A DNA stretch of 64,000 bases from Escherichia coli (GTDB lineage Bacteria; Pseudomonadota; Gammaproteobacteria; Enterobacterales; Enterobacteriaceae): the NCBI RefSeq assembly GCF_030013205.1, contig NZ_CP122648.1. One strand, given 5' to 3'. The position numbers were made by a program, and so were the translations under genes. The notes under the pieces were generated by a model. The model had not been told where the DNA came from, ran no database searches, and saw only the letters and a list, made by a program, of their open reading frames with translations. Below, piece after piece: positions 58,356 to 61,899 of this stretch (within the stretch, counting starts at the first letter, position 1; each line of letters begins with the position of its first letter).

Positions 58356-59444
58356 ATGCCTCACAATCCTATCCGCGTGGTCGTAGGCCCGGCTAACTAC
58401 TTTTCACATCCAGGAAGTTTCAATCACCTGCACGATTTTTTCACTGATGAACAACTTTCTCGCGCGGTGTGGATCTACGGCGAACGCGCCATTGCTGCGG
58501 CGCAAACAAAACTTCCGCCAGCGTTTGAACTGCCAGGGGCAAAGCATTTTTTGTTTCGCGGTCATTGCAGCGAAAGCGGTGTACAACAACTGGCGGCTGA
58601 CTCCGGTGACGATCGCAGCGTGGTGATTGGCGTCGGCGGCGGCGCACTGCTCGACACCGCAAAAGCCCTCGCCCGCCGTCTCGGTCTGCCGTTTGTTGCC
58701 GTTCCGACGATAGCCGCTACCTGCGCCGCCTGGACACCGCTCTCCGTCTGGTATAACGATGCCGGACAGGCGCTGCATTTTGAGATTTTCGACGACGCCA
58801 ATTTTATGGTGCTGGTGGAACCAGAGATTATCCTCAATGCGCCGCAACAATATCTGCTGGCGGGGATCGGTGACACGCTGGCGAAATGGTATGAAGCGGT
58901 GGTGCTGGCTCCGCAACCAGAAACGTTGCCGCTAACCGTGCGGCTGGGGATCAATAATGCGCAGGCCATTCGCGACGTCTTGTTAAACAGTAGCGAACAG
59001 GCGCTTGCCGATCAGCAAAATCACCAGTTAACGCAATCATTTTGCGATGTGGTGGATGCCATTATTGCTGGTGGTGGGATGGTCGGTGGTCTGGGCGATC
59101 GTTTTACGCGTGTGGCGGCGGCCCATGCCGTGCATAACGGTCTGACCGTTTTGCCGCAAACCGAGAAGTTTCTCCACGGCACCAAAGTCGCCTACGGAAT
59201 TCTGGTGCAAAGCGCCTTGCTGGGTCAGGATGATGTGCTGGCGCAATTAACTGGAGCGTATCAGCGTTTTCATCTGCCGACTACGCTGGCGGAGCTGGAA
59301 GTGGATATCAATAATCAGGCGGAGATCGACAAAGTGATTGCCCACACCTTGCGTCCGGTGGAATCCATTCATTACCTGCCAGTCACGCTGACACCAGATA
59401 CGTTGCGTGCAGCGTTCGAAAAAGTGGAATCGTTTAAAGCCTGA
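58356..59444 (+). CDS. ybdH: glycerol-dehydrogenase-like (iron-ADH family) oxidoreductase YbdH
   Basis: 362 aa; GVGGGALLDTAK nucleotide-binding motif. Confidence 0.9.
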   Translation: MPHNPIRVVVGPANYFSHPGSFNHLHDFFTDEQLSRAVWIYGERAIAAAQTKLPPAFELPGAKHFLFRGHCSESGVQQLAADSGDDRSVVIGVGGGALLDTAKALARRLGLPFVAVPTIAATCAAWTPLSVWYNDAGQALHFEIFDDANFMVLVEPEIILNAPQQYLLAGIGDTLAKWYEAVVLAPQPETLPLTVRLGINNAQAIRDVLLNSSEQALADQQNHQLTQSFCDVVDAIIAGGGMVGGLGDRFTRVAAAHAVHNGLTVLPQTEKFLHGTKVAYGILVQSALLGQDDVLAQLTGAYQRFHLPTTLAELEVDINNQAEIDKVIAHTLRPVESIHYLPVTLTPDTLRAAFEKVESFKA

Positions 59445-59453
59445 CGTACATAT

Positions 59454-59651
59454 TTAGCAGCAGCGCGCGCCGCCTTTTCCACCGTAGCGCGCGTCCTGCC
59501 GCTCACGGAAAAACTCCTCGTAGGTCATCGGCGTTTGATCGGGATGGTTAACCCGCATATGTTCGACATAGTTGTCGTAATCAGGCATACCAATCATCAG
59601 TTTCGCCGCCTGACCTAAATATTTTCCGGCTTTTGCCAGTGAATCAAACAT
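59454..59651 (-). CDS. ybdD: small DUF466 protein YbdD (co-transcribed with cstA)
   Basis: 65 aa [65 protein letters not shown]; the track ORF is 1 codon longer. Confidence 0.85.
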
Positions 59652-59716
59652 CAATACCTCCGGTAAACAGGTTGCTGAGAGAGTGCATTAATAGCTATCA
59701 ACGCACTTGGTCAGTC

Positions 59717-59786
59717 CCCTCGCCCCATCGGGGAGAGGGTTAGGGTGAGGGGGAACTCTCGGAGCCATGCCAACATTCCCCCTCAC
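59717..59786. repeat. compound palindromic element in the cstA-ybdD spacer
   Basis: Two adjacent inverted repeats: CCCCTCGCCCC-ATC-GGGGAGAGGG (59717-59739) and GTGAGGGGGAA-N20-TTCCCCCTCAC (59745-59786). Confidence 0.5.
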
Positions 59787-59793
59787 TCTGACT

Positions 59794-61899
59794 TTAGTGC
59801 GCGCCTTTCGCCTGCGCCACGATCTCCTCGACATTTTCCGGCATCGGCTCATATGGCGTTTCTTTCGCCGTTGGCTTCGGCTCTTTCAATGCCGCAAGTG
59901 CCGTCTTAATCGAGAACAGTGCCAGAACCACCACGACCACCATAAAGAAGATGGTTAACCCGGCATCCAGACGGTTGTTGAACACCAGTTGCGCCAGCTG
60001 TGACTCAGTATACTGCGATGGAATATTGCCGCTGTCGATCATTGCCTGGAACTTGTTAGCAATCGCCAGGAAGCCGACTTTCGCATCCGGGCTAAACGCT
60101 TTCTGCCAGCCTGCGGTCAGGGTACAAATCAGCAGCCAGGCCGTTGGTACCAGCGCCACCCAGGCGTAACGTTGACGTTTCATTTTGAACAACACTACGG
60201 CACAGAGCATCAGCGCCATCCCTGCCAGCATCTGGTTGGCAATACCAAACAGCGGCCACAGAGTGTTAATACCGCCCAGCGGATCGACCACTCCCTGATG
60301 GAGGAAGTAGCCCCACGCCAGTACGCACAGCGCCGTTGCCAGCAGGTTAGCAGGCAGTGAATCGGTCCGTTTCAGGCCCGGAGACACCACGCCCAGCAGA
60401 TCCTGCAACATAAAGCGCGCAGCACGCGTACCTGCATCCACCGCCGTCAGAATAAACAGTGCTTCAAACAAAATGGCGAAGTGATACCAGAACGCCACAT
60501 CCATCATGCCGCCCAGCGCGCCGTGCAGAATGTAGGCCATCCCCACCGCCAGCGTCGGCGCACCGCCCGCACGGGAAATGATCGACTGTTCACCCACTTC
60601 GCTGGCAATCTGGTTGAGCGTATCTGGTGTAATGCTAAATCCCCAGCTACTCACCACTTGCGCTGCAGAAGCGACCACATCCGCCGTACCTGCCGGAGCC
60701 AGCACCGCCATCGGGCTGTTCATAGCGAAGTACACACCCGGATCGATGATACAGGCGGAAACCAGCGCCATAATCGCTACGAAGGATTCCATTAACATCC
60801 CGCCGTAGCCGATAAAACACGCCTGCCCTTCGTTCGCCAGCATCTTCGGCGTGGTACCGGAAGAGATCAGCGCATGGAAGCCAGACACCGCGCCACAAGC
60901 GATGGTGATAAACAGGAACGGGAACAGGTTACCGGTCCATACCGGGCCAGTGCCATCGACAAATTTAGTTAGCGCAGGCATGGTCAGCGTCGGGCGCATA
61001 ATCAAAATGCCTACCGCCAGACCGACGATGGTCCCGATTTTCAGGAAGGTTGAGAGGTAGTCGCGCGGGGCCAGCAACAGCCACACCGGCAGCACCGCCG
61101 CCACAAAACCGTAACCCACCAGCATCCAGGTCAGCTGCACGCCGGTAAAGTCAAAGTACGGTGCCCAGGTCGGACTTTCTGCCACCCAGCCGCCAGAGAT
61201 AATGGCGAAAATCAGGAACACCAGGCCGATGACCGACACTTCGCCAATACGCCCCGGACGCAGATAGCGCAGGTAGATCCCCATAAACAGCGCCAGCGGA
61301 ATAGTGAACGCAACGGTATACGTTCCCCACGGGCTATGAGTCAGGGCTTTCACCACGATCATCGCCAGCACGGCAAGGATAATGACCATGATCATAAAGC
61401 AGGCCACCAGCGCTATCACCCCGGCGGTTGGCCCCATCTCTTCTTTGACCAGCTCACCCAGCGAGCGACCATCGCGGCGCGTAGAAACAAACAGCACCAT
61501 GAAATCCTGCACCGCACCGGCGAGAACCACCCCGGCGAGCAGCCAGATCATCCCCGGCAGGTAGCCCATTTGCGCTGCCAGCACCGGCCCAACCAGCGGA
61601 CCTGCTCCGGCAATGGCCGCAAAATGGTGACCGAACAGCACTTTCTTGTCCGTCGGCACATAGTCCAGCCCGTCGTTATGGCGCACCGCTGGCGTCATAC
61701 GCGTCGGGTCAACCGCCAGCACATTTTTGGCGATATACAGACCATAAAAACGGTAAGCGATCAGATAGATACAGACCGACGCCACCACAATCCACAGCGC
61801 GTTGATCTGTTCCCCACGATTTAAAGCAATATATCCCAGAGCAAATGCTCCCATTACAGAGAGCACTGTCCAGACGAGGTATTTCCCTGATTTGTTCAT
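59794..61899 (-). CDS. cstA: carbon starvation protein A (peptide/pyruvate transporter)
   Basis: 701-aa polytopic membrane protein. Confidence 0.95.
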   Translation of the reverse strand: MNKSGKYLVWTVLSVMGAFALGYIALNRGEQINALWIVVASVCIYLIAYRFYGLYIAKNVLAVDPTRMTPAVRHNDGLDYVPTDKKVLFGHHFAAIAGAGPLVGPVLAAQMGYLPGMIWLLAGVVLAGAVQDFMVLFVSTRRDGRSLGELVKEEMGPTAGVIALVACFMIMVIILAVLAMIVVKALTHSPWGTYTVAFTIPLALFMGIYLRYLRPGRIGEVSVIGLVFLIFAIISGGWVAESPTWAPYFDFTGVQLTWMLVGYGFVAAVLPVWLLLAPRDYLSTFLKIGTIVGLAVGILIMRPTLTMPALTKFVDGTGPVWTGNLFPFLFITIACGAVSGFHALISSGTTPKMLANEGQACFIGYGGMLMESFVAIMALVSACIIDPGVYFAMNSPMAVLAPAGTADVVASAAQVVSSWGFSITPDTLNQIASEVGEQSIISRAGGAPTLAVGMAYILHGALGGMMDVAFWYHFAILFEALFILTAVDAGTRAARFMLQDLLGVVSPGLKRTDSLPANLLATALCVLAWGYFLHQGVVDPLGGINTLWPLFGIANQMLAGMALMLCAVVLFKMKRQRYAWVALVPTAWLLICTLTAGWQKAFSPDAKVGFLAIANKFQAMIDSGNIPSQYTESQLAQLVFNNRLDAGLTIFFMVVVVVLALFSIKTALAALKEPKPTAKETPYEPMPENVEEIVAQAKGAH

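Follow-up and report, generated by a model that had tools for sequence, protein, structure and literature searches.

A truncated BoxC repeat in the cstA-ybdD spacer of Escherichia coli and its possible part in forming the cstA mRNA 3' end

The window analysed here is a stretch of 64,000 nucleotides of Escherichia coli DNA in which two minus-strand genes, cstA (59794-61899, stop codon 59794-59796) and ybdD (59454-59651, counted from the ATG at 59649-59651 that RefSeq annotates as its start), are separated by a spacer of 142 nt (59652-59793). A program-made list of open reading frames makes ybdD one codon longer, starting from a TTG at 59654, which gives a spacer of 139 nt instead of 142. CstA and YbdD are both required for pyruvate uptake. 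The two genes are entered as separate 1/1 units in Table 1 of Kaplan 2016, which cites RegulonDB (PMC5100583); Hwang 2018 gives no evidence for cstA-ybdD co-transcription, the TERMITe tables list neither gene, and the microproteome paper that names them deals solely with the CstA-YbdD complex. By blastn, the spacer of the window is 100% identical to that of several swine ETEC chromosomes. Read on the plus strand, it runs GCACTTGGTCAGT-CCCCTCGCCCC-ATC-GGGGAGAGGG-TTA-GGGTGAGGGGGAA-(20 nt)-TTCCCCCTCAC-TCTGAC, and a single further base separates this from the complement of the cstA stop codon.

The two inverted repeats that the initial annotation described in the 142-nt gap are both present. Inverted repeat 1 is formed by CCCCTCGCCCC and GGGGAGAGGG around the loop ATC (59727-59729) and pairs at 9 of 10 positions, with a single internal mismatch. 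Inverted repeat 2 is formed on the plus strand by GTGAGGGGGAA (59745-59755) and TTCCCCCTCAC (59776-59786), which lie 20 nt apart; a repeat search extends it to 17-nt arms (59739-59755 and 59776-59792) that are 88% complementary. The chance expectation of the 22-mer GGGAGAGGGTTAGGGTGAGGGG in the window is zero. A reading of the region as small open reading frames crossing the element (36 aa on the plus strand, 54 aa on the minus strand) was rejected, as this is repeat DNA and is missing in many strains.

Sequence comparison shows the element to be one copy of a known enterobacterial dispersed repeat that appears under the names BoxC, PIT, TMECO (here type 'A mm') and HPG1. The link to the family was made through a literature match to the 21-mer GGGAGAGGGTTAGGGTGAGGG. 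Holder 2015 equates TMECO with BoxC and PIT and reports 23 TMECO sites in K-12, the commonest form being type 'A mm', CCCTCGCCCC-loop-GGGGAGAGGGTTAGGGTGAGGGG (PMC4666352). A BoxC unit is defined by a pyrimidine tract (Y), a loop of 3-5 nt, a complementary purine tract (R), a 3-nt loop and a second G-rich tract, the third or reverse-Hoogsteen (RH) domain; the loop TTA marks type A. The window element has this three-domain structure: at 59716-59753 (+) it reads CCCCTCGCCCC-ATC-GGGGAGAGGG-TTA-GGGTGAGGGGG, and all three domains are identical to 'A mm' in Table 1 of Holder. The HPG1 motif is defined by at least four tracts of three or more G with loops of 1-7 nt, the sequence GGGAGAGGGTTAGGGTGAGGG and a C-rich tract about 3 nt upstream, and the R and RH domains of the window contain the exact 21-mer within the sole canonical G-quadruplex (G4) motif of the 64 kb.

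The repeat is multi-copy and intergenic. A blastn search with the 139-nt spacer returned 69,390 places in 5,388 of the 5,426 complete E. coli genomes, with a median of 15 per genome; the window itself holds a single copy, between two coding sequences. Across 15 K-12 loci and the window the core is bordered by the same flanks, which read GYGC..(N)..GGTC beyond the Y domain and AAC..GCAC beyond the RH domain. The suggestion of a dispersed intergenic repeat is thereby borne out, and the search for further genomic copies found them, with the three domains and the flanks in common; the family itself, BoxC, had gone unrecognised in the initial annotation. Identity with REP/BIME was considered and rejected, as the consensus palindrome (GCCGGATG/AAGGCG...CGCATCCGGC) is not found in the window spacer. 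The element and its copy at this locus are already known: the family dates from the 1990s and was re-described in 2000, 2015 and 2016, and Table 1 of Kaplan 2016 gives the K-12 copy in cstA>>>ybdD as HPGQ no. 19, with its midpoint at 632058 (PMC5100583). The K-12 spacer carries the same element and, in addition, a 29-nt insertion that contains a REP, as well as an 11-nt duplication. The third domain of the K-12 copy reads GGGTGAGAGGG, which explains why this copy is missing from the 23 sites of Holder; the window copy is canonical.

The relation of the two palindromes to each other becomes apparent from the wider family. BoxC homology runs past the 36-nt core into a conserved flank on each side, as seen when 15 K-12 loci are placed in register. 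At 5 K-12 loci a type-A unit stands opposite an inverted type-B unit with a spacer of about 27 nt between them, and because the A unit faces the inverted B unit, the third domains (GGGTGAGGG / CCCTCACCC) make an extra inverted repeat. We aligned the window with the K-12 composites at ygfF-gcvP, alx-sstT, fepB-entC and hrpB-mrcB. The homology starts just past the cstA stop codon and covers the loop of hairpin 1 as well as the entire type-A unit, while the partner unit is without its outer two domains (Y and R) and only its RH arm is homologous to the composites. Since the Y and R domains of the partner are missing, the pair appears to have been truncated at the cstA stop codon. Judged by this alignment, the first palindrome is the Y/R stem of BoxC and the second is its RH domain paired with the RH remnant of the partner; what had been taken for two separate modules is instead one truncated composite unit (Table 1). 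Holder 2015 describes a decay of palindromic pairs to stem-loops, the "palindromic effect" (PMC4666352). The 11-nt unit ATGTTGGCGAA, or a near variant of it, varies in tandem copy number from 0 to 3 in the loop of hairpin 1, with 0 copies in the window, 1 in K-12 and in three further sequences (L099, L101, L102), and 2-3 in another (L103).

Table 1. Features of the element in the cstA-ybdD spacer, and K-12 RNA 3' ends next to other BoxC or BoxC-like structures (window coordinates unless marked K-12)
Feature	Position	Strand	Basis or remark
Truncated composite BoxC, whole element: type-A unit with conserved flank, inter-unit spacer and inverted-partner remnant	59703-59792		in-register listing of 15 K-12 loci; alignment with K-12 composites
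BoxC pyrimidine (Y) domain CCCCTCGCCCC	59716-59726	+	TMECO 'A mm' match; 5' arm of inverted repeat 1
BoxC purine (R) domain GGGGAGAGGG, pairing with Y	59730-59739	+	sequence and fold of the sense RNA
BoxC third (RH) domain GGGTGAGGGGG	59743-59753	+	follows loop TTA (59740-59742); doubles as one arm of inverted repeat 2
HPG1 four-G-tract G-quadruplex motif (R and RH domains)	59730-59753	+	regular expression and exact 21-mer
Inter-unit spacer of the composite, loop of hairpin 1	59756-59775		alignment with composites and of alleles; homologous to the ~27-nt spacer that separates A and B units where these are paired elsewhere
Inverted-partner BoxC remnant, only the RH-domain complement TTCCCCCTCAC and TCTGAC	59776-59792	+	other arm of inverted repeat 2; ends 1 nt short of the cstA stop codon
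Hairpin 1 of the cstA-sense RNA	59739-59792	-	begins 2 nt past the cstA stop codon
CUGAC, partner of GUCAG (59788-59792) in the closing helix	59710-59714	-	folds of window and K-12 RNAs
Site equivalent to the K-12 Term-seq 3' end, presumed to be used in the window strain	59706	-	coordinate mapping
Third palindrome GUGCGUUGAUAGCUAUUAAUGCAC	59683-59706	-	at the REP site of the K-12-type allele
ybdD Shine-Dalgarno GGAGG	59657-59661	-	outside the repeat; conserved across alleles
3' end after lldD	K-12 3781065
3' end after yjbD	K-12 4231270
3' end in the glnH-glnP spacer	K-12 847200	-	30,332 and 130,459 reads on two sheets

The expectation of stable stem-loops in the RNA holds well. The 148-nt cstA-sense RNA folds with -63 kcal/mol against -46.1 +/- 4.2 kcal/mol for dinucleotide shuffles (z = -4.0, none of 200 shuffles as good). 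Taken alone, hairpin 1 reaches -26.7 kcal/mol (z = -4.05), the short GC hairpin of the Y and R domains -17.2 kcal/mol (z = -4.0), and the 45-nt stretch 59672-59716, which comprises the third palindrome and flanking CUGA/UCAG pairs, -16.1 kcal/mol (z = -3.75). In folds of both the window and the K-12 RNA the first two hairpins are joined by the 5-bp helix GUCAG/CUGAC in one Y-shaped structure; this closing helix and the third palindrome are additions to the initial annotation. RNA of the plus strand folds with -45 kcal/mol (z = -4.6). An AT-rich palindrome, GTGCATTAATAGCTATCAACGCAC, occupies in the window the place where K-12-type alleles have the REP in its 29-nt insertion, and the presence or absence of the REP is a second, independent polymorphism of the spacer.

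Signals of a more conventional kind were not found. A scan of 59300-60300 on both strands for intrinsic terminators, defined as a GC-rich stem-loop with a U-rich tract within 0-2 nt, gave 0 sites, and a sigma-70 promoter scan of the same interval gave none. No U-tract follows either hairpin, the sequences after the stems being CCUAAC and GACUGACCAAG. With the consensus scans negative, there is no support for a canonical terminator, nor for a simple internal promoter of ybdD. A scan of 59000-60500 against Rfam 15 (E up to 10) returned best E values of at least 0.57, far under the gathering scores. The pairings show no covariation: in hairpin 1 as in the Y/R stem, allele differences affect one side of a pair and leave G-U pairs or mismatches, and compensatory changes are absent from copies that are too recent for such a test.

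The spacer is highly variable within E. coli. It occurs in many length alleles, and allele alignment distinguishes at least 8 structural alleles, four of them common among the 5,426 complete genomes. The K-12 type (about 3,699 genomes) has hairpin 1, BoxC and a REP; the window type (about 401) has hairpin 1 and BoxC and is REP-less; the ATCC 11775 / MS8324 type (1,189) has lost the BoxC core, keeps the flank in part and forms a different hairpin; and the ST38 type (134-236) has hairpin 1 and a REP, like the sister species. Minor variants include a 6-nt deletion within the unit and the 0-3 copies of the 11-nt repeat. Hairpin 1 is found in every Escherichia allele examined. The BoxC core is missing at cstA-ybdD in about 25% of the genomes (about 1,189 plus 134-236), a circumstance that the initial annotation overlooked, and also in four sister Escherichia species, which indicates that the element is no regulator specific to this locus. 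Strains can do without the BoxC core, which is unstable here; what stays constant is a stable hairpin directly after cstA.

A similar picture is seen in other species. A scan for YbdD with one genome per species gave 80 loci, with the CstA C-terminus upstream in 77; 76 spacers were folded, and the orthologs from outside E. coli number 74. Two of the YbdD hits probably represent contamination or mis-binning of public assemblies: a 465-bp contig labelled Streptomyces sp. DH24 (L023) and a 'Bacillota bacterium' MAG contig (L049) encode enterobacterial YbdD, with 98% and 89% identity, respectively. E. albertii, E. whittamii and two other Escherichia species have hairpin 1 and a REP and no BoxC core. 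In Citrobacter, Kosakonia, Atlantibacter, Buttiauxella and Klebsiella the spacer forms a plain GC hairpin, in many cases accompanied by a T-run, and many Enterobacter and Lelliottia carry a REP in the spacer. All in all, 71 of the 74 non-E. coli orthologous spacers have a fold of -18.6 kcal/mol or better, be it from plain hairpins, REPs or BoxC units. The three-domain BoxC units of 13 species are differently arranged and therefore point to independent events. Species of Enterobacter, Lelliottia, Leclercia, Phytobacter and Pluralibacter (L029, L032, L075, L078, L079, L085) carry BoxC pairs in the opposite arrangement, with the Y/R hairpins inward and the third domains outward; this opposite arrangement indicates independent acquisition at the cstA-ybdD spacer in those genera. 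As a strong hairpin is found in nearly every enterobacterial spacer, it seems that some structure is kept at this site.

Published 3' end mapping bears on what the structure might do. The Term-seq data of Adams 2021 (supplementary file 1) place a dominant 3' end at K-12 632098 (+), in the cstA-ybdD spacer, with about 1,700 reads, a weak signal listed for a single growth condition, which judging by where the sheet stands in the file is LB OD600 2.0 (PMC7815308). This end lies 10 nt beyond the BoxC stem and 4 nt beyond the GUCAG/CUGAC helix, and by mapping corresponds to 59706 (-) in the window; it was measured on the K-12 allele, where a REP follows shortly downstream. The same table gives 3' ends 2-4 nt past BoxC or BoxC-like structures at three further K-12 loci (Table 1). 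One of these, in the glnH-glnP spacer (K-12 847120-847257, L107), follows a BoxC-like unit, TTCCCTCTCCCC-TAT-GGGGAGAGGA-TTA-GGGTGAGGGG, 4 nt after its Y/R hairpin, and the unit looks like a REP-style differential-stability element of an ABC-transporter operon. The glnH-glnP unit is in the G-rich orientation, and a restriction of the 3' ends to C-rich-strand RNA was rejected on that account. At fepB-entC (L007) a Term-seq 3' end with 103,563 reads (K-12 624680 (-), LB 0.4) lies directly 5' of the BoxC pair that the fepB leader contains, and precedes the structure instead of following it.

Stable stem-loops without a U-tract are reported by Dar & Sorek 2018 to define the exonuclease-trimmed 3' ends of Rho-terminated mRNAs, REPs being one source of such structures (PMC6061677). 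A 3' end just past the fold, together with the missing U-tract, makes a REP-like barrier to 3' exonucleases the most likely effect of the element, and we consider it rather probable that this truncated composite BoxC copy acts in such a manner and caps the cstA mRNA. Transcription of cstA would run on through the element; the RNA would fold into two GC-rich hairpins closed by GUCAG/CUGAC and devoid of a U-tract; and transcripts that end or are cut farther downstream would be trimmed by 3'-to-5' exonucleases to a few nucleotides past the structure. The outcome would be a stable cstA mRNA end, by analogy with REP elements and with Rho-terminated transcripts whose hairpins lack a U-tract, and the abundances of the cstA and ybdD messages could then differ. 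We infer causality, the dependence on exonucleases, an effect on the cstA:ybdD ratio and the validity of this scheme in the window strain. The element itself would be a replaceable selfish or neutral repeat that supplies a generic hairpin function, and not a dedicated regulator. According to Holder 2015, work of the Maher laboratory found that PIT elements act neither as promoters nor as terminators and leave RNA polymerase unaffected (PMC4666352); as far as that account goes, the inactivity in reporters fits a trimming barrier and disfavours a strong effect on transcription. Against the barrier stands the small number of such 3' ends, at just 4 of the ~25 BoxC-like loci in K-12. Of the effects proposed by the initial annotation, an influence on mRNA stability is plausible, with the published K-12 3' end just past the element as circumstantial evidence in its favour, while nothing supports an effect on ybdD translation.

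Other readings share much of this evidence. It is conceivable, if somewhat doubtful, that the element is no more than a neutral selfish relic tolerated in intergenic DNA, the RNA 3' end being incidental and fitness and the expression of cstA and ybdD unaffected. The presence/absence and length polymorphism in E. coli and the absence from sister species fit such a relic, neither Holder nor Maher found a regulatory role for BoxC/PIT, and the mismatch of the Y/R stem is conserved across copies and left unrepaired, which favours recent spread over selection for perfect pairing. Hairpin 1, present in every allele, may suffice alone, in which case the BoxC core may be functionally neutral. Against a purely neutral repeat stand the strong hairpin kept in nearly every enterobacterial cstA-ybdD spacer and the RNA 3' ends at several BoxC loci. 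The latter ends, 2-4 nt past the hairpins, are also left unexplained if the element works at the level of DNA, its G-rich strand (plus in the window, the template of cstA) adopting a triplex or G-quadruplex that stalls polymerases or promotes recombination. We regard such a non-B structure as improbable, and give as small a chance to its corollary that the element mainly drives local genome instability or serves as a structural switch. Triplex formation in vitro by the consensus sequence (CD/NMR) and raised rearrangement rates at TMECO loci argue for it, but DMS footprinting in the same study was not supportive in vivo (Holder 2015, PMC4666352). CD data on G4 and hairpin formation (Kaplan 2016, PMC5100583) are also in its favour, as are the structural alleles at cstA-ybdD, at least 8 in number and including partial unit deletions and the variable 11-nt tandem repeat, though such hypervariability is equally expected from repeat-mediated slippage or recombination.

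Two further explanations give the element a role in transcript formation. The position between the functionally linked cstA and ybdD, the 3' end within the spacer and the T-run that follows the hairpin in several other genera could suggest a dedicated intercistronic attenuator or terminator that stops some RNA polymerases, or a control of ybdD translation. We find this very unlikely: the element lacks a U-tract and terminator consensus and is a multi-copy repeat that about 25% of strains do without, PIT elements did not act as terminators in the reporters summarised by Holder, and the Shine-Dalgarno sequence and ATG of ybdD lie at least 45 nt downstream, unpaired with the element in the minimum free energy fold. 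A role on both strands, in which the element would also cap the transcript of the convergent gene hcxA (58356-59444, plus strand), is unlikely as well, if less so. Only 9 nt separate the stop codons of hcxA and ybdD, and with no terminator consensus in this convergent gap, hcxA transcription must enter ybdD in antisense. The plus-strand RNA folds equally well, and a Rho-termination region that Adams 2021 give for K-12 631994 (-) maps to about 59799 (+) in the window, a few nucleotides past the element, with a Rho score of 4.49 (p = 7.9e-6); that score comes, however, from 800-nt windows, which make the coordinate low in resolution, the read counts fall from 78 to 10, and the tables list no Term-seq 3' end for that strand (PMC7815308). 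The exonuclease barrier remains our preferred reading.

The element invites comparison with several known systems. With BoxC/PIT/TMECO (Hoyne and Maher 2000; Holder 2015, PMC4666352) it shares the succession of domains CCCTCGCCCC, loop, GGGGAGAGGG, TTA and GGGTGAGGGG, as well as the intergenic location, multiple copies, conserved flanks, inverted A/B pairs and the decay to simple stem-loops. It differs in that the partner unit of the window is cut down to its inner arm. With the HPG1 'switch' motif it has in common the exact 21-mer and the upstream C-rich tract; Kaplan 2016 did not connect HPG1 to BoxC and proposed a switch or terminator role from bioinformatics and CD only (PMC5100583). As the G-rich strand is the template strand here, the cstA RNA has the C-rich complement and cannot form a G4. 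An intrinsic terminator likewise has a GC-rich stem-loop right after a stop codon; unlike it, the element is without a U-tract and negative in the consensus scan, and PIT elements were inactive in the earlier tests as related by Holder.

The closest parallel is with the REP/BIME elements that stabilise mRNA 3' ends, which are also dispersed intergenic palindromes, often intercistronic, forming U-less hairpins with RNA 3' ends just downstream, and which in other alleles and species stand at this very site, replacing BoxC or beside it. The sequences of REP and BoxC are nevertheless unrelated. REPs have a cognate RAYT transposase and interact with IHF, gyrase and Pol I; we know of no such transposase or protein interactions for BoxC, nor, to our knowledge, does the BoxC family have an established function. 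The stabilising role of REPs was reportedly demonstrated by experiment, by Newbury and colleagues in 1987, and the same role for BoxC is one that we infer.

Much of what is described here is ordinary. Only two points are mildly new: published RNA 3' ends coincide with BoxC hairpins, and at cstA-ybdD hairpin, REP and BoxC replace one another as modules. As a tentative generalisation, which we hold to be possible but not especially likely, the BoxC units of Enterobacteriaceae might be stabilisers of mRNA 3' ends, a second class beside the REPs: the Y/R hairpin, in either orientation, would halt 3' exonucleases 2-4 nt downstream and set the relative abundance of neighbouring cistrons, with cstA-ybdD selected only for 'some stable hairpin'. 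If this were true, the sites affected would include glnH-glnP, cstA-ybdD, pstA-pstB and yihS-yihR, plain hairpins, REPs or BoxC would have come to occupy the cstA-ybdD spacer many times over, independently in different lineages, and a repeat family that has been without an assigned function for 30 years would acquire one. The 3' ends right after BoxC hairpins at several loci suggest a testable REP-like role. The cstA-ybdD spacer is a clear case from nature in which hairpin modules (plain stem-loop, REP or BoxC) can stand in for one another, and its four common alleles in E. coli are a potential natural experiment on CstA:YbdD stoichiometry.
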